A stretch of DNA of 64,000 nucleotides from an uncultured Gammaproteobacteria bacterium (GTDB taxonomy: Bacteria > Patescibacteriota > Microgenomatia > Levybacterales > UBA12049): contig CAYOZJ010000001.1 in NCBI GenBank assembly GCA_964408485.1, positions 28,366 to 92,365 on the forward strand, written 5' to 3'. Under the pieces are notes generated by a model, which saw only the letters and a list, made by a program, of their open reading frames with translations, ran no database searches and was not told the DNA's origin. Made by a program: the position numbers and the translations under genes. How positions within the stretch are numbered: the stretch's first letter is position 1; every line of letters starts with the position of its first letter. Below are positions 2,691-50,065 of this stretch, piece by piece.

Positions 2691-2781
2691 GATGGAAAAC
2701 GTCCTTTCGAATAAAACGAGAGGCCTATCGAAGAGATTTCTCACTTTGTTCGAAATGACAAAGAGAAGGAGGTGAGAAAAT

Positions 2782-3047: not shown

Positions 3048-3072
3048 GTCATTCTGAACGAAGCGAAGAATC
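3048..3072. repeat. short hairpin repeat unit GTCATTCTGAACGAAGCGAAGAATC (family A)
   Basis: Member of the dispersed GTCATYC...GRATC family, whose copies are listed in the findings. Confidence 0.7.
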
Positions 3073-6393: not shown

Positions 6394-6450
6394 GTCATCC
6401 CGCACTAGATGCGGGATCCAGAATTAGATTCCTGCTTTCGCAGGAATGAC
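6394..6450. repeat. composite hairpin repeat: GTCATCC-CGCACTAGATGCG-GGATC plus GATTCCTGC-TTTC-GCAGGAATGAC
   Basis: Two hairpin units in opposite orientation give overall terminal inverted repeats GTCAT...ATGAC. The same composite is at 16108-16167 and, in-frame, inside recG and the HhH-GPD gene. Confidence 0.7.
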
Positions 6451-6469
6451 AATCTGTTCTATAATCTAT

Positions 6470-6536: not shown

Positions 6537-7598
6537 ATGGAAGAACAATTAATGCAATTAAAAAATGATGCGCTAAGTCTTATCTTGGATGCATCTGACA
6601 AAAAAACGCTTGAGGAAATTAAGCTTCAATTTCTAGGAAAGAGTGGCAAGCTGACTCTGGCATTAAAAGATATTACAAAAGTTCCAATGGAAAAAAGGGC
6701 AGAAGTAGGCAAATTAGCTAATGAAGTAAAGCAGTCAGTTGAGGAAGCAATAGAGCGACAAGGAGAAGGCCTTACCCATAAGAGCCGTGAGACAAAGCGT
6801 CTGTCTTTAGACGTTACCAATCCAGGAATCAAGCCTCCACTTGGCCATTTACATTTAATAACGCAGGCAATTCAAGAAATTACCAGTATCTTTGAAAAAA
6901 TTGGATTTACTCGCGTAAGATATCCTGAAATTGATTGGGATTATTATGCATTTACTGCACTTAATTTTCCGGAAAATCATCCTGCACGAGATGATTGGGA
7001 AACATTTTTTACAAAAGAAGATACCGATAGTAAAAAAGGGCAAATTGTCCTTACGCCACATACATCTAATGGGCAGGTTAGAGAAATGGAGCGAGCTGTT
7101 GCAGAGAGTAAGGTAACAGGGCAACCAGTGAGTATCCGCATGCTCAATATTGCAAAATGCTACAGAAGGCAATCTGATGTCTCCCATACGCAAATGTTTC
7201 ATCAATTCGAAGGGCTTGTTGTTGGAGAAAATATTTCCATTGTCCATTTGAAGGGAGTACTGGATTATTTTGTAAAGTCATACTTCGGAGAAAATCGCAC
7301 ATCTCGAATCCGACCGTATCACTTTCAATTTACCGAACCCTCTTTTGAAATAGATGTTACGTGTGGCGTGTGTCTAGGCAAAGGATGCAAGCTCTGTAAA
7401 GCAGGATGGCTAGAAATGGGCGGAGCAGGTATGGTACATCCAAATGTCCTAAAATATGGCGGTGTTGATACGAAAAAATACACGGGCTTTGCATTTGGCT
7501 GGGGAGTCGAGCGAGTGCTCATGATGAAAGAGGGAATAGAGATAGATGACTTACGTTTACTCTATTCTAATAAATTAGAGTTTCTAGAACAGTTTTAA
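6537..7598 (+). CDS. pheS: phenylalanyl-tRNA synthetase alpha subunit
   Basis: Class II motifs (FQFTEPSFEIDV, GWLEMGGAGMVHPNVL). Confidence 0.95.
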   Translation: MEEQLMQLKNDALSLILDASDKKTLEEIKLQFLGKSGKLTLALKDITKVPMEKRAEVGKLANEVKQSVEEAIERQGEGLTHKSRETKRLSLDVTNPGIKPPLGHLHLITQAIQEITSIFEKIGFTRVRYPEIDWDYYAFTALNFPENHPARDDWETFFTKEDTDSKKGQIVLTPHTSNGQVREMERAVAESKVTGQPVSIRMLNIAKCYRRQSDVSHTQMFHQFEGLVVGENISIVHLKGVLDYFVKSYFGENRTSRIRPYHFQFTEPSFEIDVTCGVCLGKGCKLCKAGWLEMGGAGMVHPNVLKYGGVDTKKYTGFAFGWGVERVLMMKEGIEIDDLRLLYSNKLEFLEQF

Positions 7599-10215: not shown

Positions 10216-10246
10216 GATTGCCACGTAGCGAGCTCCTCGCAATGAC
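10216..10246. repeat. hairpin repeat unit GATTGCCACG-TAGCGAGCTCCT-CGCAATGAC (family A/B)
   Basis: GATT...AATGAC flanks around an imperfect inverted repeat, in the spacer between the small ORF and the PBP 3' end. Confidence 0.6.
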
Positions 10247-10280: not shown

Positions 10281-12566
10281 TTACGGTGTAGGCGTTGGGG
10301 TCGTTGGTTGGGTTGGCTGAATGTTAAGTGACTTCAATAAATCATCTGGTGGGTACCACTGATAATCTGCTGCTGAATGATTATCCTTAATCCATTGGTC
10401 TATTCCTGCTTGCCACCTATTTTGTCCATCTGTTGAGACTGGATCGTCTTCTCGGACTATATAGTAGATCTTTCCATCCTTACTTTGATACACAGGACTT
10501 GCTGATGTTGGCTCGGTTCCCTTGATGAAATATTCAGAACGTGTTGGCTGATTATTATAAGGAAGTCCACCAAAAAGCGTATCTACATTTACTGCTACAA
10601 TATTATCCGGCTTTTGCGGTTCTTCATTGGGCTTGCCCTTAAGCACATAGCTCATAATCTTATTCCAAATAGGGGACGCACCTGTTATACCTGATGCAAT
10701 TGCCTGATTCATTGCCGTATTGTCATTATTACCAACCCATACGCCGACAACATAAGACGGCGTGTACCCAACAGTCCAGTTGTCCTTTTTACTATCTGTC
10801 GTACCTGTTTTGACACTCACTGTCTTACCTGACACAACAAGCCAAGAATTTGTTCCGAATTCCAGAGAGCGGGCATTATTATCTAGTAATATATGAGAAA
10901 TTAGATACGTTACTTCTTTCGGCATTACTTGCACACCCGGCTTATCGTGATTTTCAAAAAGCACATTCCCATGACTATCAGTCACCTTAAGTATCGAGAC
11001 CGGGTCATGTCTCTGCCCTTGATCTGCAAATACGCTGTATGCTGTCATTTCATCAAGAAGTGTTGTTTCACGTCCTCCCAGGACAAGAGAGAGTCCTACA
11101 TCTTTCATATTTTCAGCCGTTGGCTCCCAATTCGTAATACCCATGTTGTAGCCTGTTGTCATCGTATCTTTAATACCTACTTTTGCAAGCATCTTTACTG
11201 CTGGAATATTCATAGAATTGCCCAAGGCAAAGCGAAGCTGAATGGGTCCATGATATTTTCCATCATAGTTAACTGGGGTATAGGTCGGATTCGCTGCCTC
11301 TCCTGTTGGAAAATCTGTCTTTACATCCATTATTTCTGTTGCCGGTGTATAACCTTTTTCAAAAGCTGTTGCATACATAATAGGCTTTAGAGACGATCCC
11401 GGCTGTCTATTAGCTAGAGCATCGTTATAATTCCCATCAATTGTTGTATCAAAATAATCTGTATTACCAACCATTGCTAAAATCTGGCCATTTTTTGGAT
11501 CCATTACCATTGCTGCGCCATTTGCAACATGATACCCCTTTAGATTTGCAATTTCTGTCTTCACGATATCTTCTGCATGTTTTTCGTAATCGTAATCGAG
11601 CGTTGTTGTTACTTGCAGTCCACCATTTTCTACAGCTGCTTCCCCAAATTGCTGTGCGAGAAGTTGTTTGACATACATTACCCAGTGGGGCGCTTTAATA
11701 GACCGATCGGTATCGGAGAATTTCATTGCTTGCACTTCTTTGTAGGCACTGTCATCCTCTTTTTGGGAAATATATCCTTCTTGCTGCATTGCATCGAGTA
11801 CTGCCTTTGTTCTGGCTAAATAGTATTTATTACCAGTAAATGGTGAGTACACACTTGGCGCCTGAGGAAGTCCTGCTAAAAATGCAGACTGCGCTAAATC
11901 CAGATCTTTCACATCTTTTCCAAAGTAAGCTTGCGCTGCAGATTCTACACCAATATTTGCTCCCCCATATGGTACGTCGTTAAGATACATTTCCAAAATT
12001 TGATCTTTGGAATATCTTTTATCCACTTGGATTGCCAAGATAAGCTCTTTGAGTTTTCGGACAAAGGTTTGTTGTGTGTCCTGAAGAAGGACATTTTTGA
12101 CTAATTGTTGAGTAAGTGTAGACCCTCCTCCTTCAATTCTTCGATAAACAATAAGATAAACTGCCGAGCGAAGATATCCTGTTACAGAAAATCCTGAATT
12201 AGTATAAAAATTTCTATCCTCGATGGAGATTGTTGCGCGTTGGACATTTTTTGGAATATCTTTTAATTGGACATAGGCTCTATTTTGATCTTTATACACA
12301 GAGTAGAGAAGTACGCCCTTTCTGTCAAAAATACGTGTAGACTCTGCAAGACTACTATTAATGAGTTTTCCCGGAGCGGGAAGATCGCGTCCATACCAAA
12401 TAAAGAGGAAAACAAAAATAACAACACCGATAATAAGCGCAAAAAGTGTAAGTCTGGCAAGACGACTATAGAGCACCATTCGAGACGATCCATTCACTGG
12501 GGGAAAGAGAAATCGCCAAAAACTAACAAGCAAACTCTGACGGCGACGCCTAGAGCGGAATTCCAT
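10281..12566 (-). CDS. class A penicillin-binding protein (transglycosylase/transpeptidase)
   Basis: GT51 motif GGSTLTQQLVKN, transpeptidase SxxK and KTG(T) motifs, N-terminal TM segment, Pro/Thr-rich C-terminus. Start placed at MEFRSRRRR; the ORF-track start at 12641 is also possible. Confidence 0.9.
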   Translation of the reverse strand: MEFRSRRRRQSLLVSFWRFLFPPVNGSSRMVLYSRLARLTLFALIIGVVIFVFLFIWYGRDLPAPGKLINSSLAESTRIFDRKGVLLYSVYKDQNRAYVQLKDIPKNVQRATISIEDRNFYTNSGFSVTGYLRSAVYLIVYRRIEGGGSTLTQQLVKNVLLQDTQQTFVRKLKELILAIQVDKRYSKDQILEMYLNDVPYGGANIGVESAAQAYFGKDVKDLDLAQSAFLAGLPQAPSVYSPFTGNKYYLARTKAVLDAMQQEGYISQKEDDSAYKEVQAMKFSDTDRSIKAPHWVMYVKQLLAQQFGEAAVENGGLQVTTTLDYDYEKHAEDIVKTEIANLKGYHVANGAAMVMDPKNGQILAMVGNTDYFDTTIDGNYNDALANRQPGSSLKPIMYATAFEKGYTPATEIMDVKTDFPTGEAANPTYTPVNYDGKYHGPIQLRFALGNSMNIPAVKMLAKVGIKDTMTTGYNMGITNWEPTAENMKDVGLSLVLGGRETTLLDEMTAYSVFADQGQRHDPVSILKVTDSHGNVLFENHDKPGVQVMPKEVTYLISHILLDNNARSLEFGTNSWLVVSGKTVSVKTGTTDSKKDNWTVGYTPSYVVGVWVGNNDNTAMNQAIASGITGASPIWNKIMSYVLKGKPNEEPQKPDNIVAVNVDTLFGGLPYNNQPTRSEYFIKGTEPTSASPVYQSKDGKIYYIVREDDPVSTDGQNRWQAGIDQWIKDNHSAADYQWYPPDDLLKSLNIQPTQPTTPTPTP

Positions 12567-12689
12567 ATAGCCTATTATGGCAAAGTTTTGGAGCAAAAAC
12601 AACTCAACTTGCAAAACCAGATAAATTATTATAAGATACACCTTATGACTGGCTTTGACTTAGATTATCGATGTGAACACCCTGATCCA

Positions 12690-16107: not shown

Positions 16108-16167
16108 GTCATCCTCGACCTGATCGGGGATCCAGGAAATAGATTGCCGCGCTTCGCTCGCAATGAC
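16108..16167. repeat. composite hairpin repeat (GTCATCCTCGACC..GGGGATC plus GATTGCCGCGCTTCGCTCGCAATGAC)
   Basis: Same two-unit architecture as 6394-6450, immediately upstream of the recG promoter. Confidence 0.7.
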
Positions 16168-16189
16168 AGACGTTGTATAATCACATCAC

Positions 16190-18283
16190 ATGAAACTCTC
16201 AACCCCGATTACTAATGCAGGTAAACTGTATGCAAATTACGCAGGCCGCTTGGAAAAACTCGACATTTTTACCTTAAAGGATTTTTTGTATCACTTGCCA
16301 GCTCGCTATGACGACTTCTCTCATATTGTTGCAATTAAAGATTTGGTCGCTGGCGAGTTAGTAACAATACAGGGACAAATTACCGAAATAACAAATAGCT
16401 ATACACGGTCTCGTAAGCAAATTCAAAAAGCAACAATCACCGACGACAGCGGGACACTGCCTGTTATTTGGTTTAATCAACCATACATCACCAAGACGTT
16501 AAAGTTTGGTGATAGCGTGTCTTTATCAGGGAGAGTGCAATCGGATGGATTTATTCCAAGTCTTGTTGCACCTGATTTTGAAATTATTCCAATGAGCGGT
16601 AGGACAATTCATACTGGCAGGCTTGTCCCAGTGTATCCTGAGACAGCAGGGGTCAGCTCCAAATGGCTAAGACGCCAAGTAGATAAGTTACTTGCAACCT
16701 CTTATGAACTTGTTGAATTTCTACCAGATGAAACGCAAAAACGCCTTGACCTCATGCCATTTAATAAGGCCATTGCTCAGATTCATTTTCCCGATGCTCT
16801 AGGAGAATCAGAAAAAGCCCGCGAGCGCTTAGGATTTGATGAAATCTTTTTACTTCAATTAGCAAATATAAAAAGAAAAAGGGAGTGGCAAGAAAAAGTA
16901 TTAGGAAATACATTTGCGATAGAAAAATTCCAAAAGGAAATTGATAAATTTTGGGAAAGCCTACCATTTGAGCCAACAAGCGCGCAAAGACGAGCAATTC
17001 ATGAGATTATGAGTGACCTTGCTAGCCCTCATGCAATGAATAGATTACTCCAGGGAGATGTAGGAAGTGGCAAAACAATCGTCGCTGGTATTGCAATGTA
17101 TATGGCATTTTTAAATGGTTTTCAATCTGTCCTTATGGCACCAACAGAAATTTTAGCCAATCAACATTACGAAACACTAAAAAAATTACTCGAGCCGCTT
17201 GGAGTAAAGGTTGACTTAGCAACTGGTTCTAAAAAAACAGAACGCGTCATTGCGAGCGAAGCGAAGCAATCTAATATTAATAAGGAGAAGATTGCCGCGT
17301 CGTCTTCGACTCCTCGCAATGACAATTCATTTGACATCCTTATTGGTACCCATGCCGTACTTTCTGACAAGATAAATTACGAAAAATTAGGACTTGTTGT
17401 TATTGATGAGCAACATAGGTTTGGAGTAGAGCAACGATCTATTATTCGCTCCAAAGGCACAAATCCCCATGTCCTTACCATGACAGCAACACCAATCCCT
17501 CGTACCGTTGCGCTTACACTTTATGGGGATCTTGAGCTTTCTATTCTTGATGAAATGCCCAAAGGAAGACAAGTTATTAAGACATGGCTTGTCCCTAATC
17601 AAAAGCGTGAAGCAGGATATGAGTGGATAGAAAAACAAATTAAGAAAGGCGATCAGGCATTTATTGTCTGTCCGTTTATTGAAGAGTCTGAATCCCTAAC
17701 TACTATTAAAGCAGCGAGTAGTGAATTTGAACAACTTCAAAAACATGTTTTCCCAAAGCTCAAACTCGGACTTTTGCACGGAAAAATGCGAGCAAAAGAG
17801 AAAGATGAAGTTTTGGAGAAGTTTCGAAAGGGCAGTATAGATATTCTCGTCGCGACACCAGTTGTTGAAGTTGGCATAGACATTCCAAATGCAACAATTA
17901 TCCTTATTGAGGCAGCAGAAAGATTTGGACTATCACAGCTTCATCAACTCAGAGGTAGAGTTGGGAGAGGAGATAAGCAGTCATATTGCCTTCTTTTTAC
18001 CGAGAGTAGCAGCCCTCAAGCAACCCAACGTCTTAAAAGTATGGAACACATTCATAATGGCGCGGAATTAGCAGAGTTAGACTTAAAAATGCGAGGCTCT
18101 GGGGACTTATACGGCACTCTTCAACACGGCAGAAAATGGCTTAAAATAGCCTCATTTTCCGATACCAGACTTTTGGAAATAGCCAAACAAGAGGCAATAC
18201 GAGTTTTTCCAGATCTAAATAAATATCCACTTCTTATTGAGAAAATTGAAGAAACGGCCACAAAACAGGTTAGTCCAGACTGA
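16190..18283 (+). CDS. recG: ATP-dependent DNA helicase RecG
   Basis: Wedge domain, Walker A GDVGSGKT, DEQH box, helicase C motifs. Carries a 78-nt in-frame repeat insertion at 17246-17323. TATAAT lies 8 nt upstream of the ATG. Confidence 0.95.
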   Translation: MKLSTPITNAGKLYANYAGRLEKLDIFTLKDFLYHLPARYDDFSHIVAIKDLVAGELVTIQGQITEITNSYTRSRKQIQKATITDDSGTLPVIWFNQPYITKTLKFGDSVSLSGRVQSDGFIPSLVAPDFEIIPMSGRTIHTGRLVPVYPETAGVSSKWLRRQVDKLLATSYELVEFLPDETQKRLDLMPFNKAIAQIHFPDALGESEKARERLGFDEIFLLQLANIKRKREWQEKVLGNTFAIEKFQKEIDKFWESLPFEPTSAQRRAIHEIMSDLASPHAMNRLLQGDVGSGKTIVAGIAMYMAFLNGFQSVLMAPTEILANQHYETLKKLLEPLGVKVDLATGSKKTERVIASEAKQSNINKEKIAASSSTPRNDNSFDILIGTHAVLSDKINYEKLGLVVIDEQHRFGVEQRSIIRSKGTNPHVLTMTATPIPRTVALTLYGDLELSILDEMPKGRQVIKTWLVPNQKREAGYEWIEKQIKKGDQAFIVCPFIEESESLTTIKAASSEFEQLQKHVFPKLKLGLLHGKMRAKEKDEVLEKFRKGSIDILVATPVVEVGIDIPNATIILIEAAERFGLSQLHQLRGRVGRGDKQSYCLLFTESSSPQATQRLKSMEHIHNGAELAELDLKMRGSGDLYGTLQHGRKWLKIASFSDTRLLEIAKQEAIRVFPDLNKYPLLIEKIEETATKQVSPD
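17246..17323. repeat. composite hairpin repeat inserted in-frame within recG (78 nt, 26 codons)
   Basis: GTCATTGCGAGCGAAGCGAAGCAATC, a spacer, then GATTGCCGCGTCGTCTTCGACTCCTCGCAATGAC. It encodes ...ASEAKQSNINKEKIAASSSTPRNDNS.... A near-identical second half is in the HhH-GPD gene at 38596-38703. Confidence 0.75.
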
Positions 18284-18544: not shown

Positions 18545-18569
18545 GTCATACTGAGTAAAACGAAGGATC
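18545..18569. repeat. hairpin repeat unit GTCATACTGAGTAAAACGAAGGATC
   Basis: Family A unit in the rpmF-nusB spacer. Confidence 0.6.
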
Positions 18570-19841: not shown

Positions 19842-19865
19842 ATTATAATTACAAAATTTATGCAA

Positions 19866-19889
19866 TCATCCTGAGCAGTGCGAAGGATC
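19866..19889. repeat. hairpin repeat unit ATCATCCTGAGCAGTGCGAAGGATC
   Basis: Family A unit in the rpsP-KH spacer. Confidence 0.6.
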
Positions 19890-24369: not shown

Positions 24370-24963
24370 CTACCTATTTATATTTCGTATACCAATTGAT
24401 GTCTGGAAAACAACAGCGCTTTGAGAAGCAAGTTGCTCTGCAAACGTACTGCTTGATGATTGTTGCAGCGAAAAGTTTATTAAAATAACTGGTAAGTCAG
24501 AATTGCTTTCTTGAGAACAAGTGAATGAACATGATTTCAATGAAACCTGTGATGTATCCAGCAGACTTGCACCATTTGATGATATTGTTGAACTTGTACA
24601 CGCGTAGGTTATTTGCTGATTATCAGGCGTAAGAAGAGAAATAGAATTTGCCGTTACCGGTGGACTGCAGGGAAAAGGAGTCACCAAACCTCTCGCATCC
24701 CGAATAGTTTTAGCCATTTGTGAAAGAGTATAATTTCCATTATTTTGCACAAGTGTAACAATATCTGTTTTATGGGATGTTCTAAATGTTGTTACGAGAA
24801 TACTAAATACGATCGATCCAACGACAATAAAAATTGCAATAACGGCAAGCATTTCAACAAGAGTAAACCCACGCGAAGAGCATAGGGCGAAGGGTCTAGG
24901 GCACAGAATGTCCTTATTCTTTTTAACTCTATGCTCTGTGCTATATGCTCTATGCTTTTTCAT
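24370..24963 (-). CDS. prepilin-type N-terminal cleavage/methylation domain protein (pseudopilin)
   Basis: RGFTLVEMLAVIAIFIVVG class III signal motif. Confidence 0.7.
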   Translation of the reverse strand: MKKHRAYSTEHRVKKNKDILCPRPFALCSSRGFTLVEMLAVIAIFIVVGSIVFSILVTTFRTSHKTDIVTLVQNNGNYTLSQMAKTIRDARGLVTPFPCSPPVTANSISLLTPDNQQITYACTSSTISSNGASLLDTSQVSLKSCSFTCSQESNSDLPVILINFSLQQSSSSTFAEQLASQSAVVFQTSIGIRNINR

Positions 24964-25508
24964 GGCGTTGGAAAAACAGTGAAATCAGAAAAACATGTAG
25001 ACAGTGTTACAGAGTGACAAAAAGGATTTAATGTGTCTTGGCATTTTGGATCATACCATGATGTCCTAACAGTTATCTTAACGTTTGCTGATAGCGCATT
25101 TACTTGACCATTTGGCGTAGGACTTACATTACAATCAGCAGAATCATGCTCGACAACAACTTCCCGTACAAATTTATCAACATTTTGACCACAACTTGTG
25201 GTTTTCACCCAACATTGTGCGTTATTACTATCAAGATCAGAGCAGGCTTTTGCCAAACAATATGTATCGTCTGGTAATAATTCTGCCGAGATTGATGCAA
25301 TATTTTCATTGCGCATATCACGAATCAGCTCAATTCCAGCTTGTGTATATTGTGTTGCAATATTTTGGTCTCTCGCAAAGTCACTATTATTTAACGCACT
25401 AAGTGATGCGCTAACAATTGCCCCAATAATAACAACTGCTGCCGTGAGCGCCACTAACACTTCAATAAGTGTCTGTCCTTTCTCATTTGAAATTTTAAAT
25501 TTCATCAC
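24960..25508 (-). CDS. prepilin-type pseudopilin
   Basis: KGQTLIEVLVALTAAVVIIG N-terminal motif. Start overlaps the upstream gene by 4 nt. Confidence 0.65.
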   Translation of the reverse strand: MMKFKISNEKGQTLIEVLVALTAAVVIIGAIVSASLSALNNSDFARDQNIATQYTQAGIELIRDMRNENIASISAELLPDDTYCLAKACSDLDSNNAQCWVKTTSCGQNVDKFVREVVVEHDSADCNVSPTPNGQVNALSANVKITVRTSWYDPKCQDTLNPFCHSVTLSTCFSDFTVFPTP

Positions 25509-26164
25509 TGTATTACTCCTGTTGCAGAAACAGTTGCAATCTTAGTAAACCCATATCCGGTTATACCAATCTGGGGCGTTGCACCTGACGCATTTGTTGT
25601 CACTGCACCAGTAACCGATGAGAAGAAGAAATAGGTTGCTTTTGTTTTACTTGATGTATCAATAGTCACACCCGGATCCTGAATTTTTTTCCCAAGACAA
25701 GTCTGCGTTATTCTTCCTGACCCATCTGAATTCCCATATACTGCTTGTAACTCATAGGTGTTGGTGTTGGTATTACACTGCGCAGATAAACAAAGTGAGC
25801 TAAATGAGCAACAGGCAACTACTTGGTATCCTTCTAATTCGTACCCCTGACCAGTAAATCCATTTGCAAAACAAGTAGTATCGCGAAGTTGGGAAAGCGC
25901 TCGGGATCTGGCAGTAAAAAGGGTTGTCTTAAACTCTTTCATTGCAGTGTCTACCTGCTGAGATCTGCTGTAGCTTACAAATGAGGCAATACCAACAAGG
26001 GAAAGAATTACCATAACAGAAAAAACAATAATAAGCTCTATGAGAGTAAAACCACGCTCATGCTTTGCATGAGAATTTCCAATTTCTAATTTCCAATTTC
26101 TAACAGAAAGTGTTACGGTGTTATTTTTAGAAGAATTTGAAATTTGACATTTGAAATTTGACAT
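25505..26164 (-). CDS. prepilin-type pseudopilin with long leader
   Basis: ERGFTLIELIIVFSVMVIL motif. A ~45-aa leader is encoded by a low-complexity GAAATTTGACATTT tandem repeat. Confidence 0.65.
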   Translation of the reverse strand: MSNFKCQISNSSKNNTVTLSVRNWKLEIGNSHAKHERGFTLIELIIVFSVMVILSLVGIASFVSYSRSQQVDTAMKEFKTTLFTARSRALSQLRDTTCFANGFTGQGYELEGYQVVACCSFSSLCLSAQCNTNTNTYELQAVYGNSDGSGRITQTCLGKKIQDPGVTIDTSSKTKATYFFFSSVTGAVTTNASGATPQIGITGYGFTKIATVSATGVIQ

Positions 26165-26173
26165 TTGAAATTT

Positions 26174-26740
26174 TTATGGGTTATTTTTTGTGTAGTATAC
26201 GCCTGAGGTACATGCACTATCTCCACCTGCAAACGAAGACGTTGAGTCTGTATCTGCTGAATTTTCAAGACATGCAGCAAGAGTATAGGTAGTACCTGTT
26301 GTATCGTAGTAATAACTTCCTACATGGTAATACGTATTACCCAGTGGGTCGCAGGGAATTTTCTGCATATAGGTTGACCCTGAGTAGGTAAAACTAGATG
26401 GAGTAGGGCAGGCAGCACTATTGAGCCTATTTGTCCCACCTTCTGGAGGATAAGTACCAGTATCAGATCTGTATAACTCAAGCGCCGATTGGATTTGTCT
26501 AACGTCAGATTTTCTTTGTGCATCTCTTGCACGCTGTCTAATACCAATAAAATTGGTCATAAGAAGCGTTGAAAGAATACCAATGATCGCAATAACAATA
26601 AGAAGTTCAATAAGAGTAAAGCCAGCGTTGCTGGAAGTTCCAAATCCCAATTTCCAAGAAACAATTAAATTCCAATACCTCAAATTCCACATTGTTTGTA
26701 TCTTGTTTCTTGTTTCTTGTTTCTTGTTCATACAGATCAA
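26174..26740 (-). CDS. type IV major pilin-like protein (paralog 1)
   Basis: NAGFTLIELLIVIAIIGIL followed by ARD..RKSD..QIQSALELYRSDTGTYP, the T4a pilin / GspG-like fold signature. 45-aa leader. Confidence 0.8.
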   Translation of the reverse strand: MICMNKKQETRNKIQTMWNLRYWNLIVSWKLGFGTSSNAGFTLIELLIVIAIIGILSTLLMTNFIGIRQRARDAQRKSDVRQIQSALELYRSDTGTYPPEGGTNRLNSAACPTPSSFTYSGSTYMQKIPCDPLGNTYYHVGSYYYDTTGTTYTLAACLENSADTDSTSSFAGGDSACTSGVYYTKNNP

Positions 26741-26772
26741 TGGTAAATGGTAAATAATAAATCGTCAATGGG

Positions 26773-27416
26773 CTAGGGTGTTGTGTTAGGACTACTAACA
26801 CCATAGTTGCAAGGGTGGTGTTTGCCTGACGCTCCACAATCAACTGCTGCTGGAACGTTACCACATGTGCAGTACGTGAGACTTTCCGGATTATTAATAC
26901 AATTAGAGACCGTGGCTTTGCAAGTTTGTGTGTCATTTGGTCCTTGTTCAATTGACGTATAGAGATAGTATGACTGAGGAGATCCTCCTGGGGCATAGTA
27001 CACATACGTTCTACTAGAATCCGGATCTTTCGGCACAAGATCCATGTATGGCGACCAACCGCCTGATGCTCCCCATCCAAGACTGACACCATTAAAATCT
27101 GTTATGGTGTATGACGAACTGCTTTTTGGATAATTACCATGATCTTGATAATATTGCTCTAATACTCTTTGAATTTGTGCTAAATCAGACTTACGCTCGC
27201 CATCTCGCGCTTTTCTAAATTGCGCAAGGGGATTAAGGGCTGCAAGAGCAAAAACAGCAAGAATTGCTAAGATTCCAATAACGATAATCAATTCTATAAG
27301 AGTAAAGCCAGCGTTGCTGGAAGTTCCAAATCCCAATTTCCAAGAAACAATTAAATTCCAATACCTCAAATTCCAAATTGTTTGTATCTTGTTTCTTGTG
27401 TCTTGTGTCTTCGTCA
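26773..27416 (-). CDS. type IV major pilin-like protein (paralog 2)
   Basis: Leader plus N-terminal helix nearly identical at DNA level to paralog 1. C-terminal domain divergent and Cys-containing. Start placed at MTKTQDTRNK. Confidence 0.8.
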
Positions 27417-27418
27417 TA

Positions 27419-28213
27419 TTAATTAAATGCACAACTTTGACTGCAGTGCTGATCACAATAACAGTGGATATCTCCACCATAGTCTGTACACTGCGTCTTT
27501 GGTGCAATACTATTACATCTATTATCTCCTGTGCATCCATAAAACTGGTCACCAGGGCATGCAAGCGGCGTAGGAGTTGGTGTTATAGTCGGACCACCAC
27601 TGCCACCAGTAACAGTTGGAACTGTATCGCCTTGATTAATAACGTAACTGGCAACTTGGCTACAATCAACACTTCCTGAAATAGTACAGTAATTATAGTT
27701 ATTGGTTCTATACCCATTTGGCACACATGATGTTCGCTGTGCAAGAGGACAAGCATTACTTGGGACAGACGAACTCCGCAGGGCTGAGTACAAGACGTTC
27801 CATTGAGGACAGCTACTCGTTGAGTCAGGCTCATATAAGTAACACTTATCCGAATCACTGCCACAATCAGGATCCTGAGGAACTTTTTCCATATACACAT
27901 GATTATGTACTTTCCAGATCACCCCAAAGGTCAAAGAAGTTGGGTAACATCCAGTATCATTAAAGTAGCTATCAAGTGCCCTTTGAATTTGTCCCAAATC
28001 ATGCTCTCTCTTTCCATCATTTGCTTTATTGTATTGAGCAAGGGGATTAAACGTAGTAATCAGTCCAACAAGAAGAATTCCTAAAATAGCCAAAACAACA
28101 ACTAGCTCAATAAGAGTAAAACCTGATTGATAATGAAACCAACTATACGACTGAGAAAGATTCTTCAAAAACCAAGAATTCTTACTGCGTATTTCCATAA
28201 AAAATCTCCCCAT
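27419..28213 (-). CDS. type IV pilin-like protein with Cys-rich C-terminal domain (paralog 3)
   Basis: QSGFTLIELVVVLAILGIL plus NDGKREHDLGQIQRALDSYFNDTGCYP. About 20 Cys in the C-terminal 120 aa. The start overlaps the pilD 3' end. Confidence 0.8.
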   Translation of the reverse strand: MGRFFMEIRSKNSWFLKNLSQSYSWFHYQSGFTLIELVVVLAILGILLVGLITTFNPLAQYNKANDGKREHDLGQIQRALDSYFNDTGCYPTSLTFGVIWKVHNHVYMEKVPQDPDCGSDSDKCYLYEPDSTSSCPQWNVLYSALRSSSVPSNACPLAQRTSCVPNGYRTNNYNYCTISGSVDCSQVASYVINQGDTVPTVTGGSGGPTITPTPTPLACPGDQFYGCTGDNRCNSIAPKTQCTDYGGDIHCYCDQHCSQSCAFN

Positions 28214-28935
28214 ATTAGTGCTAGTAATGCTCCGAGAAAAAGGAAAGGTCCAAAAGCAATTGTGCTTCCTTTAAATTTCTTTTTCCCTTCTAAAATGAGT
28301 ATGACGCCGCATATACCACCTGTCAAGAAAGCTATATAGTATGCAACAACAATATATGGAAATCCAAGAAGAAATCCTAAAATTGCAACAAGTTTTACAT
28401 CTCCAAACCCCATCCCCCTGCCTTTAGAAAAAAGAAAAATAAGAAAAAGCGGTAAACTAGCCATAATAGCTACAACTAATCGCAAAGGAATCGTTGTGGG
28501 ATCGACAAGGAAAACAGCACACACAACAAGAATTCCAAACACAATAAGCAATGCATCCGACAAGATATGATACTTGATATCCATAATCGCAAGAGCAATC
28601 CCTAGAGAAAACAGTAACGCACTAATTGAATACATACCGAGATGAACCATATCGGTAGGCCACTGAAAAAGAAAAATCCCAATAAAAGCGATGCCAGTGA
28701 GAAGTTCTATGAGAGGGTATTGAAAAGAAAGCTTTTTATGACAATACCTACATTTTCCTCTCAGGAAGGCAAAGGACACAATTGGAATGAGATCAAACGC
28801 AGAAAGAGTATGATGACAAAAATCACAATGTGACCGACCAAAAAGTACTGATTTATTTGCAGGTATTCTATCAATCAAAACATTAAGAAACGAACCCATA
28901 CATAATCCAAAAATAAATAAAAAAAATATTGCCAT
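28165..28935 (-). CDS. pilD: prepilin peptidase (A24 family)
   Basis: N-terminal CxxC...CxxC zinc-binding cytoplasmic domain and polytopic membrane domain (GMGFGDVKL region). Confidence 0.9.
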   Translation of the reverse strand: MAIFFLFIFGLCMGSFLNVLIDRIPANKSVLFGRSHCDFCHHTLSAFDLIPIVSFAFLRGKCRYCHKKLSFQYPLIELLTGIAFIGIFLFQWPTDMVHLGMYSISALLFSLGIALAIMDIKYHILSDALLIVFGILVVCAVFLVDPTTIPLRLVVAIMASLPLFLIFLFSKGRGMGFGDVKLVAILGFLLGFPYIVVAYYIAFLTGGICGVILILEGKKKFKGSTIAFGPFLFLGALLALIWGDFLWKYAVRILGF

Positions 28936-28998
28936 AAAACAACCCTCACCCTTGTATTCCCTCTCCCAAAAGGAGAGGGGGCTTTGTCACGTTACCCA

Positions 28999-30153
28999 TT
29001 ATGCTACCCAATAATTAAGACTATGCATCACAAGAAAAAGTCCTTGTAATAGTAAGCTTATGTAGAGATATGGAAAAGTAATTGTTTCATATTTTTTTTC
29101 ATATGACATAATCGATAAACATACAAATAAAGGAAAAATAATAACCAAATATCTTGTGTATGACATAAAACTACCACCCAAGACGGGCAACAATCCAAAG
29201 CAAAGACTATAAACAAAATATACTGCAGACACTCTTTTTCTCATAAAGAAAAGGGATACAACAAAGGAGAAAAAAAACAGTCTATCAAGCAGGGAATCAG
29301 TAAATCCATGAATATGCAATGGAAAAGTAAACAATGCCTTAAGAAAAAAGAGAGGATTAAAAAGAGAAAAAAATGAATAATGAGAAACAAAATTTTGCTG
29401 TGCGCTAAACTGTGCAAACAAGCTTCCCGCTGTAATATAATAGATGATCATTGCAAGAATAAGCCCAAAAATGGGAAGAAAAAGAAAGAGTGTCTTTTTT
29501 TGTAATACTGTTTTCCCAATAACATGCATTTCGTCATAAAAAGAATGACGAGAATATTCAAGAATATAGGAAAAAAAGAAAGGAATAAGTATCGCAACTC
29601 CAATCAAACGCGTCAACGGAAGGAAGAATGCAACAAGAGATGCTCTGACAAGTTTTTTTTCTTGGAGAAAAAGAAAGAATAAAATAACAAGCAGGAAAAA
29701 CAGACTTTCTGTGTAAATAAGAGAGAAATAAAAACTTGTTGGAAAAGCAAGCAGCAGCAACAGGCTTCTTTTTGCAATTTTTTCGTTGTATTGATTCTTA
29801 ATCAAGAGATAAAACAAGTAAAAGCCGATACAAGAGAAAACATTTGCAAGTACCATCCCTGCAACAAAACTATTTCTTACTATCAACGTTGTGAGAAATA
29901 TAATAAAAGGCAAAAGAGGAGAGAATGCATTAGATTCATCATTTTTATGATATCCTTTCTCGCTTATATAAAGATAGTGCTGTGCATCCCATGTTTTATA
30001 TGAAGTGACAAGTGAAATTTGTTCGCGTATTGGATACGTAAAATTTGCAAAATATGTTGGTGCATTAAATGGTAAAAGAGAAAAACAAAGAAAAATAAAA
30101 ACAACAATACAAATTTTTACTGACAGAATAATAAAAATTATATCTCGTTTCAT
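28999..30153 (-). CDS. polytopic membrane protein, putative GT-C-fold glycosyltransferase
   Basis: About 11 predicted TM segments and a WDAQHYLYISEKGY motif in the first extracytoplasmic loop, reminiscent of GT-C mannosyltransferases. Functional assignment is inferential. Confidence 0.45.
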   Translation of the reverse strand: MKRDIIFIILSVKICIVVFIFLCFSLLPFNAPTYFANFTYPIREQISLVTSYKTWDAQHYLYISEKGYHKNDESNAFSPLLPFIIFLTTLIVRNSFVAGMVLANVFSCIGFYLFYLLIKNQYNEKIAKRSLLLLLAFPTSFYFSLIYTESLFFLLVILFFLFLQEKKLVRASLVAFFLPLTRLIGVAILIPFFFSYILEYSRHSFYDEMHVIGKTVLQKKTLFLFLPIFGLILAMIIYYITAGSLFAQFSAQQNFVSHYSFFSLFNPLFFLKALFTFPLHIHGFTDSLLDRLFFFSFVVSLFFMRKRVSAVYFVYSLCFGLLPVLGGSFMSYTRYLVIIFPLFVCLSIMSYEKKYETITFPYLYISLLLQGLFLVMHSLNYWVA

Positions 30154-30162
30154 ACAATAGGT

Positions 30163-32196
30163 TTATTTACTTGATACTCCAAGCGTATCTTTTGACGCTG
30201 ACAATGCCTTTTGAAAGTCTTTGCGATAGAGTTGGGTATAGGCGATACTTACCTCACTTGCTCTTTTTTTATCTTTAAAACAATTCAGATACATAGTATA
30301 TAAGAGAAAGTATGGTGTTTCTTGATACTGGTTGAGTGCTAGTGATTGAGAAAGATTATCTGCTGCATAGCCACATTTTCCAGCAATTCCAGAATATAAA
30401 ACTCCCAACGCGCTATATGCTTTATCATTATTCGGCTCAATATCGCGGGCTTTTTTATAGAAAGAAAGCGCGCTATCTGTATCTTGATAGCGTGTATAGA
30501 TAAAGGTTCCAGTAGCAATAAGTGAATTACTATACGCATTGGGGATTTCCGCAATTGTTAGGCTATGAGCAACAGGATTTTTTCTTTCTTCAATTGTTGG
30601 AGCATGAAGCGTTGACCAAATAGAACCAACTTGCATTTCGTAACTTTTTTTGTCGGGGAGACGATCTACATCTTGATACATTTCAAAAACAAGTCCGAAA
30701 GGTACCCATATAAGTTTTTCGCCTGTTTTGGGTTGAAATTGAGTTGTTGAAAAAATTCGCCGTGTGCTACTCATCGAACGGACTATCTTTATTAGTGCTT
30801 CTGTTCTATTTTTCGAGCTAACTCCTTTAAGACCATCTGCAATACTATTGTGCGTTACAGGTGTTGCCCCTATATTATAAAGGAGAATGTCTGGCCGGTC
30901 ATGAAGCGCGTAATGCACATACCATGTATTAAAAATTTGTGTATCCCCAGATATAAGAAGTACAGCATTACGCGGCAATGGATCGAGAAAGTCTTTCGCG
31001 TAGGTATCGCCAATCATAAGGGATGCAAGATTTGTCTTAGGGGTATTATAGACAAAAAGCATGAGCGGAATGAAAAGAAAAAGACAGGTAAAAAGAACTT
31101 CATAATGACGTTTGGGTAAAAAGCTTGCAAGACGCACAGTAAATACATAAAGGCCAATTCCAAAAGGAATAAGAAAAATCACCGTTGAAAGTAAGGTAAA
31201 TCGTTCGTATGCACCAATAATAAAACTGCTTGTTAAAGGAAATCCTGCATACATCAAAAAAACTGGACCAGAAAGCAACCACGCAAGAAATAGTGACGTG
31301 AAGAGTATTTTATCCTTTTTGAAAATGTGCCAAAACCCAAGAAAAGTAAGTACTATCGTTGGAATTGTTAACTGAAATAAAAGATACTGTACATAAAGCC
31401 ATAAGGTAACAAGGCGTTGCGCAAAGGAAGGCGTATCAAAAATACCAGCTTGAAAGGTACCATAATCTTTCCGGAGAATTAAATGAAAAAAGGAGGGAAT
31501 ATCATGAACTGAATCCCAATTAATAATTGGGTTATGGGCAGATGCAATAAAAATATATAAGAAAGGTGTTAATCCAAGAACAAATGATAAAAGCAAAAGA
31601 AGAATCAATAACATATTCTTTTTTATCTGAAGAAATAATTGTTTCCCAATTAATAGAAAAAGTGATGGAACGATAAGAATAATTGTTGAATGATGCGTAG
31701 AGGCAAGTCCGAGGCAAAAAAAGAAAAGATACAATACGGGTCCTTTTTTACTTTGACGAAAAAGAAGCGCCAAAAGAAATAGCACAAGCGCAAAGAATGT
31801 ATTTAACATAAATACTTCAGCAACTTCCGCATAAAACCAATAGAGAAAAGAGAATCCAAGAATGAGTGATGCAACAACACTGTTTAATGAATTTTTTGTA
31901 AGTTGCTTGGTAAAAAGATAAAAACATACAACGCCACCTGCTCCCGCAAATGCAGAAATTAACCCAACGGCAAATGCAGGAGAAATACGAGCAAGAATGG
32001 AATGAGTTAGTAAAAATCCTAGAAAGGTGAATAACGGATATCCTGAAGGGTGAGCAACTCCTCCAACGCTTGCTGCTGTTACTAAGTCGCCAACATCTCC
32101 TCCATAAATACTTCTCGAGAGATGACTAACGTAAAGCAGCAAAAATCCACTAAACAAAAATGTGGGCAGGATAATTTTCTTAACTAAAGAGAGCAT
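30163..32196 (-). CDS. DUF2723/TMEM260-like GT-C membrane protein with C-terminal TPR repeats
   Basis: N-terminal polytopic domain with GGDVGDL...HPSGYPLF loop, then a soluble C-terminal TPR region (YKKARDIEPNNDKAYSALGVLY...). Confidence 0.55.
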   Translation of the reverse strand: MLSLVKKIILPTFLFSGFLLLYVSHLSRSIYGGDVGDLVTAASVGGVAHPSGYPLFTFLGFLLTHSILARISPAFAVGLISAFAGAGGVVCFYLFTKQLTKNSLNSVVASLILGFSFLYWFYAEVAEVFMLNTFFALVLFLLALLFRQSKKGPVLYLFFFCLGLASTHHSTIILIVPSLFLLIGKQLFLQIKKNMLLILLLLLSFVLGLTPFLYIFIASAHNPIINWDSVHDIPSFFHLILRKDYGTFQAGIFDTPSFAQRLVTLWLYVQYLLFQLTIPTIVLTFLGFWHIFKKDKILFTSLFLAWLLSGPVFLMYAGFPLTSSFIIGAYERFTLLSTVIFLIPFGIGLYVFTVRLASFLPKRHYEVLFTCLFLFIPLMLFVYNTPKTNLASLMIGDTYAKDFLDPLPRNAVLLISGDTQIFNTWYVHYALHDRPDILLYNIGATPVTHNSIADGLKGVSSKNRTEALIKIVRSMSSTRRIFSTTQFQPKTGEKLIWVPFGLVFEMYQDVDRLPDKKSYEMQVGSIWSTLHAPTIEERKNPVAHSLTIAEIPNAYSNSLIATGTFIYTRYQDTDSALSFYKKARDIEPNNDKAYSALGVLYSGIAGKCGYAADNLSQSLALNQYQETPYFLLYTMYLNCFKDKKRASEVSIAYTQLYRKDFQKALSASKDTLGVSSK

Positions 32197-32202
32197 GAGA
32201 GC

Positions 32203-32763
32203 CTATTGCGAGCACCAATAGCAGGCAGTTGATGTTGGATTACAATCTCCAGTTGGTGAGTGTGGCGAACCATCTCTATTAAATTTAGCATTTGGATCCG
32301 ACCTTTGAGCTTTTGATTGTGGTTGGAAGCAGGCGGTAATATCGGTATCTGTTCCACTGACAATGATACTAGTTAATACACTCGTTACTGTCGTGAAGGC
32401 AGCCTTAATCTCTCCATCTGACACAAGACTACTCAAGCAAGTTACCAAATCAGGATTAAGAGACAATGACGTTGGATTATTATTGCCATTACACCCATTA
32501 TGCCATGGCATACTGTTATGAGTTGTGTAGTAGCGAATATTTGCATCAATAAATTCAACCGCAGTATTTTTAGTGTTCGCATCATTTGCTTTCTTAAGCT
32601 GCTCGAATGGATCAATAGTTGCAACAAGCGCTGCAGCCAAAACACCTAAAATACCAATAACAACAAGGAGTTCGATAAGGGTAAAACCCTTTTGTGAAGA
32701 AATATGAAAACTCCTTAGGAGTTTGGACAGTTTTTTCATGAATCTATACTTTAAGTTAAACAT
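32203..32763 (-). CDS. type IV pilin-like protein
   Basis: KGFTLIELLVVIGILGVLAAALVATI class III signal and N-terminal helix. Start may be the second Met (MKKLSKLL). Confidence 0.75.
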   Translation of the reverse strand: MFNLKYRFMKKLSKLLRSFHISSQKGFTLIELLVVIGILGVLAAALVATIDPFEQLKKANDANTKNTAVEFIDANIRYYTTHNSMPWHNGCNGNNNPTSLSLNPDLVTCLSSLVSDGEIKAAFTTVTSVLTSIIVSGTDTDITACFQPQSKAQRSDPNAKFNRDGSPHSPTGDCNPTSTACYWCSQ

Positions 32764-37768: not shown

Positions 37769-38425
37769 ATGCAAAGTTTTATTATTGCTTCCCGCAACAC
37801 AGAAAAAAGAAAAGACTATATAGAAAGTTTTTGCACCAGCAAATCTATTAGCCAATTTGACAAGCACTATATACAACCTGGAGAAAATTCCTTTGGTATT
37901 ACCGAAATCAGAAATGTTCAAAAAACAGCATTCCTTCGTCCACAAAAAGGAAGTGAGAAAGCAATTATTTTGGAGAATGCCCAAAAGCTTACTACAGAGG
38001 CCCAAAACGCATTACTCAAAATGCTGGAAGAACCTCCTACAAATACCTATATTTTCTTGTCTGCAACAACAGAGAATTTCTTTCTTCCAACTATCCTCTC
38101 ACGATGCAAGCTGATTATATTGCCAGAACAAGACACTACGATTTCTGATGAAGAAAAAGAGATACTACACAGTCAGATACAAATTATGACAACAGGTACT
38201 GTTGGCGATAAATTATATCTTGCTGAAAAGGTAGCAGGGGAGAAGGAGAAAATAGGGGAGTGGTTACGAGAAATCGTACTCCTTCTTCGAGACAACATGC
38301 TCGAAGATCCAAAGAATGCTACATATCCTAATTTTATTGTACAAATGCAGGAAGCGAGTAAGTTTTTCCAAACAACAAATGTCGCCCCACGAGTATTACT
38401 TGAGCATACATTTCTTTCTCTATGA
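37769..38425 (+). CDS. holB: DNA polymerase III delta' subunit-like (short)
   Basis: AQNALLKMLEEPP and TILSRC motifs of clamp-loader delta'. Reduced length of 218 aa. Confidence 0.7.
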   Translation: MQSFIIASRNTEKRKDYIESFCTSKSISQFDKHYIQPGENSFGITEIRNVQKTAFLRPQKGSEKAIILENAQKLTTEAQNALLKMLEEPPTNTYIFLSATTENFFLPTILSRCKLIILPEQDTTISDEEKEILHSQIQIMTTGTVGDKLYLAEKVAGEKEKIGEWLREIVLLLRDNMLEDPKNATYPNFIVQMQEASKFFQTTNVAPRVLLEHTFLSL

Positions 38426-39099
38426 AATTTAATGATCCAATACTGCAGGAGTTAGTCAAAAAATATCCTGCGCCAAAATTTGAAGACCGGACAGGAAAAC
38501 TTTATGAAGAATTGGTTGAATCTATTATTTCCCAACAACTATCTGTCAAAGCATCAGATACTATATATAAGCGGTTTAAGGACTTATTTAAACCTGTCAT
38601 TGCGAACAGTGCGCGACCCCTCGGCGAAGATAGTCCCGAGTCGGGAAAGCAATCTAATACAAATAACGAGATTGCCGCGTCGTCTTCGACTCCTCGCAAT
38701 GACGCCTTCCCATCGCCTCAACAAGTTCTTGCCATGTCGGACGAACTTCTTCGAACAGCAGGTATTTCTTTTCAAAAAATTTCCTATATAAAAAGTGTTG
38801 CCGATGCTTTTATTTCCGATTTAATTGATGTTGAAAAAATAAAGAAAATGACTAATGATGAAGTGATTGAGACACTTACCCAAATTCGGGGAGTAGGGAA
38901 GTGGACTGCAGAAATGACTCTTATTTTTACACTCAAAAAACCTGATGTATTTTCTTTGGGAGACTTAGGTCTTCGCAATGCAATTACCAAGCTGTATGGA
39001 ATAACAGATCAAAAGAAAATGCTTGAGTTATCTGAAACCTGGAAACCTTTTAGAAGTTATGCGTGTTGGTATTTGTGGAGAAGTCTGGAGAATAGTTAA
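38422..39099 (+). CDS. HhH-GPD superfamily DNA glycosylase (AlkA/3-methyladenine glycosylase II-like)
   Basis: Helix-hairpin-helix GVGKWTAEM followed by a catalytic Asp. Contains a 108-nt in-frame repeat insertion at 38596-38703. Confidence 0.7.
   Translation: MKFNDPILQELVKKYPAPKFEDRTGKLYEELVESIISQQLSVKASDTIYKRFKDLFKPVIANSARPLGEDSPESGKQSNTNNEIAASSSTPRNDAFPSPQQVLAMSDELLRTAGISFQKISYIKSVADAFISDLIDVEKIKKMTNDEVIETLTQIRGVGKWTAEMTLIFTLKKPDVFSLGDLGLRNAITKLYGITDQKKMLELSETWKPFRSYACWYLWRSLENS
38596..38703. repeat. composite hairpin repeat inserted in-frame within the HhH-GPD glycosylase gene (108 nt, 36 codons)
   Basis: GTCATTGCGAAC...GGGAAAGCAATC plus TAATACAAATAACGA plus GATTGCCGCGTCGTCTTCGACTCCTCGCAATGAC. 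The 33-nt second unit is identical to the recG copy. Encodes ...ARPLGEDSPESGKQSNTNNEIAASSSTPRNDA.... Confidence 0.75.
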
Positions 39100-46081: not shown

Positions 46082-46106
46082 GTCATCCTGAGCAAAGCGA
46101 AGGATC
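46082..46106. repeat. hairpin repeat unit GTCATCCTGAGCAAAGCGAAGGATC
   Basis: Family A unit just after folD, followed by a promoter-like TTGACA-N18-CATAAT at 46149-46178 and two intrinsic terminators at about 46186-46216 and 46253-46280. Confidence 0.6.
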
Positions 46107-49988: not shown

Positions 49989-50065
49989 AGATATTGATGA
50001 TTTATAATTTATTATTTACCATTGACGAAAACTTTTATGGACATATTAATTAGAATATTTTGCGA

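Follow-up and report, generated by a model that had tools for sequence, protein, structure and literature searches.

The recG gene and its insert

We analysed a 64,000-nt stretch of DNA (hereafter the window; positions 28,366 to 92,365 of contig CAYOZJ010000001.1, assembly GCA_964408485.1) from a Levybacteria-like member of the Patescibacteria, with attention to a short palindromic insert in its recG gene. The gene occupies positions 16190-18283 on the forward strand of the window. Its open reading frame (ORF) of 697 amino acids was recognized as RecG by four Pfam domains (RecG_wedge, DEAD, Helicase_C and RecG_dom3_C), and it was further characterized through its orthologs, an alignment with PDB 1gm5, an AlphaFold2 model and dN/dS, the ratio of nonsynonymous to synonymous substitution rates. 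A first-pass annotation had described a 78-nt element lying in frame inside this gene, and the element was indeed found at positions 17246-17323. It comprises 26 codons, RecG residues 353-378, with the in-frame translation VIASEAKQSNINKEKIAASSSTPRND, and is built from two inverted hairpin units.

The left unit, GTCATTGCGAGCGAAGCGAAGCAATC (17246-17271, forward strand), consists of a (c)GTC tag, ATTGC, the inner segment GAGCGAAGCGAA, GCAAT and a final C, and encodes VIASEAKQS. It is followed by an A/T-rich spacer of 18 nt, TAATATTAATAAGGAGAA (17272-17289, forward strand). The right unit, GATTGCCGCGTCGTCTTCGACTCCTCGCAATGAC (17290-17323, reverse strand; reverse complement GTCATTGCGAGGAGTCGAAGACGACGCGGCAATC), is inverted, so that its tag points outward, and its sense strand encodes IAASSSTPRND. 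Each of the two units has a 5-bp outer stem, ATTGC/GCAAT, around an inner segment of 12 or 20 nt that forms a GAA-looped mini-hairpin. In the predicted fold of the whole 78-mer, the units pair with each other and produce one long hairpin, with the spacer as its terminal loop. Folded as DNA, the 78-mer reached -21.1 kcal/mol (z = -6.1); folded as RNA, it reached -31.2 kcal/mol (z = -5.2). None of the shuffled sequences folded as well. The insert has a length that is a multiple of three and leaves four of the six frames open, as does the only other intragenic dimer in the window. Thus, the reading of recG was not broken by the insert.

Our interpretation, which we hold with high confidence, is that the insert is a dimer of CGTC-tagged repetitive extragenic palindromes (REPs) with its tags outside (the 'HH', REPIN-like arrangement), inserted in frame at a surface linker of RecG and translated as a loop.

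Comparison with insert-free orthologs

For comparison we used 120 homologs of RecG found in Patescibacteria, the majority of which carry the label Levybacteria. The nearest orthologs without an insert (P0008, P0010, P0011, P0012 and P0014) were all 671 amino acids long, i.e. 697 minus 26, and showed 77-78% identity to the RecG of the window. The alignment with orthologs that had been proposed as a check of the insertion therefore gave an exact indel of 26 residues, or 78 nt, against all five. At the DNA level, this was a clean indel within a variable linker of four codons, which reads TGSKKT-GTKA-FDML in the insert-free genome L002 and TGSKKT-ER-(78 nt)-NS-FDIL in the window. The gene order tyrS, recG, rpmF, nusB, rnc, rpsP was kept around the insert-free orthologs.

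The same insert was found at the same place in the RecG of a sister genome (L001, GCA_035457005.1), which is 83% identical to that of the window outside the loop. In L001, the right unit was shortened and the spacer differed from that of the window in both sequence and length. The spacer between tyrS and recG of L001 also carried a dimer, with a left unit different from that in the window.

It had been claimed that the segment is not one expected in RecG, and two results bear this out: its last 35 nt recur in a glycosylase gene of the window (17289-17323 and 38669-38703, 35 of 35 nt identical) and its left unit recurs in many phyla. A native, lineage-specific loop of RecG, or an artefact of assembly, would be the simplest alternative to an inserted repeat. 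The region is hypervariable in length among orthologs, and ordinary loop evolution could explain some of the differences. However, neither a native loop nor an artefact accounts for a 35-nt identity with a copy in another gene, for a left unit identical to units from other phyla, or for an indel of exactly 26 codons against five close orthologs. Moreover, GCA_035457005.1 is an independent assembly, and the GC content of the insert was 0.47 against 0.385 for the window. We regard this alternative as refuted.

The insert belongs to the CGTC-tagged REPs

A superfamily of CGTC-tagged REPs, with four families, has been described in a survey covering several phyla (Di Nocera, De Gregorio and Rocco 2013, BMC Genomics 14:522, PMC3733652). 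In this survey, each repeat has an unpaired CGTC tag (TGTC or CCTC being accepted), a stem of 8-9 bp that starts with two A-T pairs, a loop of 4-5 nt, and a short tail that is mostly CCA. The repeats are mostly intergenic and mostly form tags-outside dimers with spacers of 20-100 nt. Intragenic dimers that are in frame encode 20-30 residues, and many of them lie within replication or repair genes. No transposase was found to be linked to them. The survey equates RPE-6 and RPE-4 of Rickettsia conorii with CGTC-1 and CGTC-4, respectively, and dRS3 of Neisseria with CGTC-1; it also reports aberrant loops for CGTC-1 in Bradyrhizobium, and its supplement lists VIPAKAGI as the peptide of CGTC-1 in R. 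conorii.

The repeats of the window agree with this description in tag, A-T start, tail, dimer arrangement, mostly intergenic location and, for the copy in recG, the 20-30 residues encoded in frame. The tag is cGTCATT in the left recG unit and tGTCATT in the reverse complement of the right unit; it is CGTC in the intergenic unit at 16108 and TGTC in those at 6394, 3048 and 46082. All tagged units open with GTC-AT and close with AT-C, as in ATTGC...GCAAT, ATCCCGCA...TGCGGGAT and ATTCCTGC...GCAGGAAT. The tail is CCA at 6394 and 16108, CTA in the left recG unit and in the reverse-strand units at 6450 and 16167, and CTT in the right recG unit. The tags are outside in all four dimers of the window. 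The intergenic units also match the published stem and loop sizes, with 8 bp and a loop of 5 nt at 6394, 8 bp and a loop of 4 nt at 6450 (reverse strand), and 8 bp including one G-T pair and a loop of 5 nt at 16108. The unit at 6450 would translate as VIPAKAGI, the CGTC-1 peptide. The window differs from the published cases in its host, Patescibacteria being a phylum outside the survey, and in its host genes, since recG and the HhH-GPD glycosylase gene are absent from the published host genes.

Similarity to the Rickettsia palindromic elements (RPEs) had been proposed as an analogy, and the relationship turns out to be closer than that. The repeats of the window fit the tagged superfamily to which RPE-6 and RPE-4 belong (PMC3733652); like these, the recG insert is palindromic, lies in frame in a conserved gene and would be read through as a surface peptide. 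Two differences should be noted. RPE-containing proteins are reported to be expressed in Rickettsia, whereas expression of the recG insert is predicted, and the host of the window lacks the obligate intracellular context. RPE-1 is about 100-150 bp long, longer than the 78-nt, CGTC-type recG element, and probably unrelated to it in sequence, so that only the in-frame colonizing behaviour is common to both.

Other palindromic repeats resemble the present ones to different degrees. GTAG-tagged REPs and REPINs are likewise short hairpins with an unpaired 5' tag that occur in high copy number, form inverted doublets foldable into one hairpin and occasionally lie within genes. However, their tag is GTAG and not (C/T)GTC, and they flank an HUH tyrosine transposase (RAYT), whereas no RAYT-like ORF was found in the 64-kb window. 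The unit at 6427-6450 has the ATTCCC...GGGAAT core of Neisseria dRS3. The dRS3 repeats form large clusters and serve as a phage integration site, whereas neither large clusters nor a role in phage integration was seen in the window. [quoted passage not shown] Our literature search on palindromic repeats or REPs in the Candidate Phyla Radiation or Patescibacteria returned nothing relevant, and a literature search by element sequence returned unrelated primers only. At the gathering threshold, Rfam reported two tRNAs in the window and no family for the repeat element.

Spread across phyla

We scanned 185,579 species genomes for the pattern GTCATTGCGAG-N35-65-CTCGCAATGAC and found at least 120 loci. 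The matches listed came from more than eight phyla; they included Alpha-, Gamma- and Deltaproteobacteria, Bacteroidota, Chloroflexi, Planctomycetota, Cyanobacteria, Zixibacteria, Rickettsiales, Coxiellaceae and other Patescibacteria. Over 26 of 26 nt, the recG insert's left unit was identical to units in several loci of Bradyrhizobium, Sphingomonadales and Coxiellaceae, the first 11 nt being preset by the search pattern and the other 15 free. Among the matches listed, its inner segment GAGCGAAGCGAA was the second commonest variant of 225 units from other phyla, and 130 of these 225 same-type units had the CCA tail.

In-frame copies were confirmed in a UvrA (VIASKAKQSHSTGSANNGIATSPLAPRND) and in a GMP synthase. 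Many further ORFs in other phyla span a dimer. We did not accept them as intragenic cases, because where the genome is rich in GC most of them are probably spurious and antisense.

Translation, selection and protein structure

Between the window and L001, both of which carry the insert, dN/dS was 0.095 for the part of recG upstream of the insert and 0.073 for the downstream part; dS, at 1.4-1.8, was saturated. Helicase motifs II-VI are encoded downstream and can be made only by read-through. The strong purifying selection on this part argues that the insert has long been translated, or at least kept open. The claim of a translated insertion thus gains support from the downstream selection, while translation itself is deduced and was not observed. 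The accompanying description of RecG as an essential protein was overstated, as RecG is not essential in model bacteria.

Within the insert, dN was 0.25 and dS was 0.37 over 23 codons, a ratio near 0.7. Both values are four to six times below the synonymous rate of the flanks. Slow change at all codon positions points to constraint or copy correction acting on the nucleotide sequence, and not to selection on the peptide. On this small sample, the result suggests that the insert is constrained or copy-corrected as DNA rather than as a peptide.

The AlphaFold2 model, built from the 120-sequence alignment, had a mean predicted local distance difference test score (pLDDT) of 84.8. The insert scored 47-53 and the flanking strands (residues 341-344 and 383-386) 80-92. 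The insert is thus probably a disordered loop of 26 residues in this model. It lies in helicase domain 1, between the strand ending in TGS and the strand starting with ILIGTHA. We compared the region 17210-17340 of the window with the solved structures 1gm5 and 9wm0. The linker between TGS and IGTHA has 18 residues in the RecG of Thermotoga maritima (1gm5; TTPSEKEKIKSGLRNGQI), roughly 16-20 in Escherichia coli and 8 in the empty Levybacteria proteins. Judged from these alignments, the site is a shortened surface linker, at which a helix on the surface of helicase domain 1 has apparently disappeared in the Levybacteria-type lineage.

The RecG loop as a recurrent landing site

In the alignment of the 120 orthologs, this loop was the sole internal site of large indels. 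It was longer than 12 residues in about 73 orthologs and had 12 residues or fewer in about 47. Those inserts that were inspected as DNA form hairpins, and they are of several types: ATTGC-type CGTC dimers (VIAS...PRND), ATYCT-type dimers (VILNASEES...SAQDDK, in L004), a pair of CGTC-1 and CGTC-4 units (VIPAKAGIQKKEWIPDRVRDD), a triple cluster (P0005), and A/T-rich imperfect hairpins (IKNQELGIK...NSSFIIHNS in L127, and KSQI...NWKLDIGN).

The 22 closest sequences were placed in a bootstrapped neighbour-joining tree, for which Kimura distances were computed with the loop masked. Four pairs of sisters, one with a filled and one with an empty loop, were recovered with bootstrap values of 93-100 (P0006/P0016, P0009/P0011, P0007/P0008 and P0013/P0012), and the members of a pair were 81-88% identical outside the loop. 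A single ancestral insertion in the close clade is ruled out by these pairs. Four empty sequences from different pairs have the linker KKxxLDxF in common, which argues that the empty sequences keep the ancestral state. Either repeated insertion or recombinational transfer of loop alleles could lie behind the pattern. On the sequences compared, the loop appears to have been filled or emptied at least four times in a genus-level clade, by several unrelated hairpin families. Selection would be the cause of this hotspot.

One of the motifs found in the loop also occurs elsewhere in the window. On the reverse strand, positions 26040-26170 carry an A/T-rich imperfect inverted repeat, AATTTCAAATGTCAAATTTCAAAT ... 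AGAAATTGGAAATTAGAAATTGGAAATT (DNA fold z = -3.1), in the upstream part of the ORF 25505-26164 and directly before the GFTLIEL leader of this pilin-like gene. It translates as KCQIS...NWKLEIGN, and the same motif fills the RecG loop of P0029, P0048, P0070 and P0093. Going by its sequence, this repeat represents another family of hairpin repeats, separate from the CGTC one.

A second in-frame dimer in a glycosylase gene

The first-pass annotation had overlooked a second in-frame copy of the same subfamily, at 38596-38703 on the forward strand (108 nt, 36 codons), which is in the same phase as the recG copy (VIANS...IAASSSTPRND). Its host, the ORF 38422-39099 on the forward strand, encodes an HhH-GPD protein similar to DNA-3-methyladenine glycosylase, as judged by Pfam (PF00730) and by the source names of its homologs. 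The protein has 225 amino acids here, whereas roughly two-thirds to three-quarters of 120 homologs have 188-194 and no insert at the loop concerned. In the glycosylase, too, the inserts are found at one loop (RFKxLF|FPTP), where other lineages have VIPAKAGIQ-, RHPELDSGS- and RHSGKSE-type segments. The GC content of the two intragenic dimers was 0.47-0.54.

In the sister genome GCA_035457005.1, the glycosylase gene (L128, 3001-3594) has only 24 extra nucleotides at this loop, AAACAAGGGAGGCAACAAAATGACACC, which end in AATGAC like the terminus of the repeat and may be the remnant of a deleted repeat. The first-pass annotation had called the family active or recently active. The identity of the recG and glycosylase copies over 35 of 35 nt, set against the saturated synonymous divergence between the sister genomes, supports recent activity. 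As the glycosylase of the window has a full dimer that matches the recG copy, L128 has only 24 nt and the recG orthologs differ, copying or conversion must postdate the divergence of the two genomes.

The left unit of the glycosylase dimer (38596-38654) is 59 nt long instead of about 26 nt, with an extra internal segment, CAGTGCGCGACCCCTCGGCGAAGATAGTCCCGAGTCGGGA, that contains small palindromes. Its appearance is that of a nested insertion, or else of a loop that has expanded.

Other copies in the window

A structure-aware scan, blastn-short and a peptide-motif scan together revealed ten repeat sites in the window, comprising four dimers and six single units; eight of the sites are intergenic and two intragenic. 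The degenerate pattern proposed in the first-pass annotation had eight matches against 1.47 expected, and none of 100 shuffled sequences reached eight, so that the signal is above chance. The two intergenic dimers reported together with the recG element are also real, and both have their tags outside like the recG insert.

The intergenic dimer at 6394-6450 has the left unit tGTC ATCCCGCA CTAGA TGCGGGAT CCA, and its right unit (6427-6450, reverse strand) reads GTC ATTCCTGC GAAA GCAGGAAT C as the reverse complement. The dimer at 16108-16167, in the spacer between tyrS and recG, has the left unit CGTC ATCCTCGA CCTGA TCGGGGAT CCA and a right unit of the ATTGC type, which shows 93% complementarity to the first unit of the recG insert, on its left. 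The six single intergenic units are GTCATTTCGAACAAAGTGAGAAATC (2735-2759, reverse strand), GTCATTCTGAACGAAGCGAAGAATC (3048-3072, forward strand), the ATTGC-type GTCATTGCGAGGAGCTCGCTACGTGGCAATC (10216-10246, reverse strand), the slightly degenerate GTCATACTGAGTAAAACGAAGGATC (18545-18569, forward strand), ATCATCCTGAGCAGTGCGAAGGATC, which has no tag and lies in the spacer between rpsP and a KH gene (19865-19889, forward strand), and GTCATCCTGAGCAAAGCGAAGGATC (46082-46106, forward strand).

In the insert-free genomes L002 and L003, 16-21 kb of syntenic DNA contained neither dimers nor tagged units; each genome had one tag-less single unit. The unit of L002 (about 12560-12590) is in the same rpsP-KH spacer as the tag-less unit of the window, and that of L003 (about 6940-6970) is between nusB and rnc. 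These tag-less units give the impression of old single copies that were kept, and they may have a function.

Both intergenic dimers have a TATAAT box 8-12 nt downstream (in 6437-6465 and 16140-16185), which precedes a pheS-like ORF at 6537 and recG at 16190, respectively. In 6437-6465, the arrangement TTCGCA-17-TATAAT scored 10 of 12, and its -35-like hexamer is within the right arm of the repeat. By sequence, the intergenic repeats may supply promoters or abut them.

Origin and persistence of the insert

In the mechanism that we propose, a CGTC dimer would insert at the short surface linker of helicase domain 1 and would then be transcribed and translated with RecG as a loop of 26 residues. 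It would persist since this linker appears to be the sole site of RecG that tolerates extra residues, insertions elsewhere being purged by selection. The nucleotide sequence, and not the peptide, would be kept nearly constant, either by a factor that recognizes or copies the repeat or by copy correction among family members. The peptide itself would be neutral. The repeat would thus be a selfish, or at least autonomous, piece of DNA that survives in genes only where length, frame and protein structure permit.

Several observations weigh against this interpretation. The recG units (ATTGCGAG type) have a 5-bp outer stem with a GCGAAGC-type mini-hairpin in place of the published 8-9-bp stem and 4-5-nt loop. 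Neither a target-site duplication nor a conserved target motif was visible at the insertion sites, including those of the four dimers of the window. Among ten unassigned ORFs of the window, which is part of a longer genome, there was no HUH/Y1 or DDE transposase. The dN/dS within the insert comes from 23 codons and is compared with flanks whose dS is saturated, and it is from dN/dS that translation was deduced. Finally, the location of both intragenic copies in DNA-repair genes, together with about 60% of orthologs being filled, seems more than plain neutral tolerance would give.

For this last reason we kept co-option as an alternative, though we think it improbable. The loop might alter the activity of RecG, by replacing the canonical helix or by weakening the processing of branches or hairpins in a way that favours the repeats; selection, acting either on the protein or on an intragenic RNA or DNA hairpin, would then preserve the loop. 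Such a role would fit the loop being filled in about 73 of 120 orthologs, as well as the empty Levybacteria RecG being roughly 8-12 residues shorter here than the solved structures. It would also fit an insert whose frame was preserved over a divergence at which dS is saturated, and the two repair genes recall the enrichment in replication and repair genes stated in the survey (PMC3733652). On the other hand, the insert peptides are wholly different between close relatives and other close relatives thrive without an insert. The ratio of about 0.7 within the insert and its pLDDT of 47-53 speak against co-option as well, and the same repeats enter unrelated enzymes such as GMP synthase. A MITE origin seems still less probable and has very little of our confidence. 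In that case, the element would derive from a decayed insertion sequence whose terminal inverted repeats are the perfect 11-bp ends GTCATTGCGAG and CTCGCAATGAC, the DDE transposase of that sequence would move it in trans, and the small size and many copies of the element would be as expected. However, none of the four dimers has a target-site duplication, the units also occur singly, and every unit taken alone is a tagged REP-type hairpin. Within the window, neither a parent insertion sequence nor a transposase was found, and the published survey linked no transposase to CGTC repeats (PMC3733652).

One recombinase was found among the unassigned ORFs. It is a XerC/D-like tyrosine recombinase (48966-49988, reverse strand) with a Phage_integrase domain and a SAM-like N-terminal domain, and nothing ties it to the repeats.

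Significance

The element class and its in-frame behaviour have already been published; what is new is the phylum of the host, the genes that carry the inserts and the hotspot at the loop. The results add the Candidate Phyla Radiation to a published but poorly understood phenomenon, in which tagged palindromic repeats are read as peptide loops within enzymes of DNA repair. They go beyond the published picture in three ways. A 26-mer is identical between a Patescibacteria genome of roughly 1 Mb and Bradyrhizobium, Sphingomonadales and Coxiellaceae; a repeat in a coding gene appears to be constrained as DNA and not as a peptide; and one RecG loop seems to have gained or lost inserts on four or more occasions within a clade of genus level. 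Patescibacteria have only about a thousand genes, so a comparison of repeat-rich with repeat-poor genomes would give a short list of candidate mobilizers. In-frame inserts of this kind also inflate the apparent novelty of proteins in metagenome gene catalogues and yield spurious small ORFs.

A more speculative idea, to which we give little weight, is that CGTC repeats are non-randomly present in repair proteins (RecG, the AlkA-like glycosylase and UvrA). Either the loops would be selected to retune repair or branch-processing enzymes by which hairpin repeats would otherwise be removed, or a conserved repair or replication activity of the host would copy the repeats and couple their insertion to these genes. 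If this were true, pairs of repeat-rich and repeat-poor minimal genomes would reveal the mobilizing factor of a repeat family whose bases are conserved across phyla.

Other repeats in the window

Six copies of a 57-nt direct repeat family were found at 24814-32688, in a cluster of pilin-like genes that also contains a 160-nt pair (26573-26732 and 27259-27418) of 90% identity. Both kinds of repeat match the GFTLIELL segments conserved at the N-termini of paralogous pseudopilins, the locus being one for type IV pili. Loci orthologous to this cluster carry PilM, a prepilin peptidase and T2SS-E ATPases. An A/T-rich 33-nt sequence, TCAATGGTAAATGGTAAATAATAAATCGTCAAT, at 26737-26769 recurs in inverted orientation 23 kb away at 49993-50025 with 88% complementarity, and may be another dispersed repeat. 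At 56113-56196, a 42-nt unit is tandemly duplicated with 74% identity.

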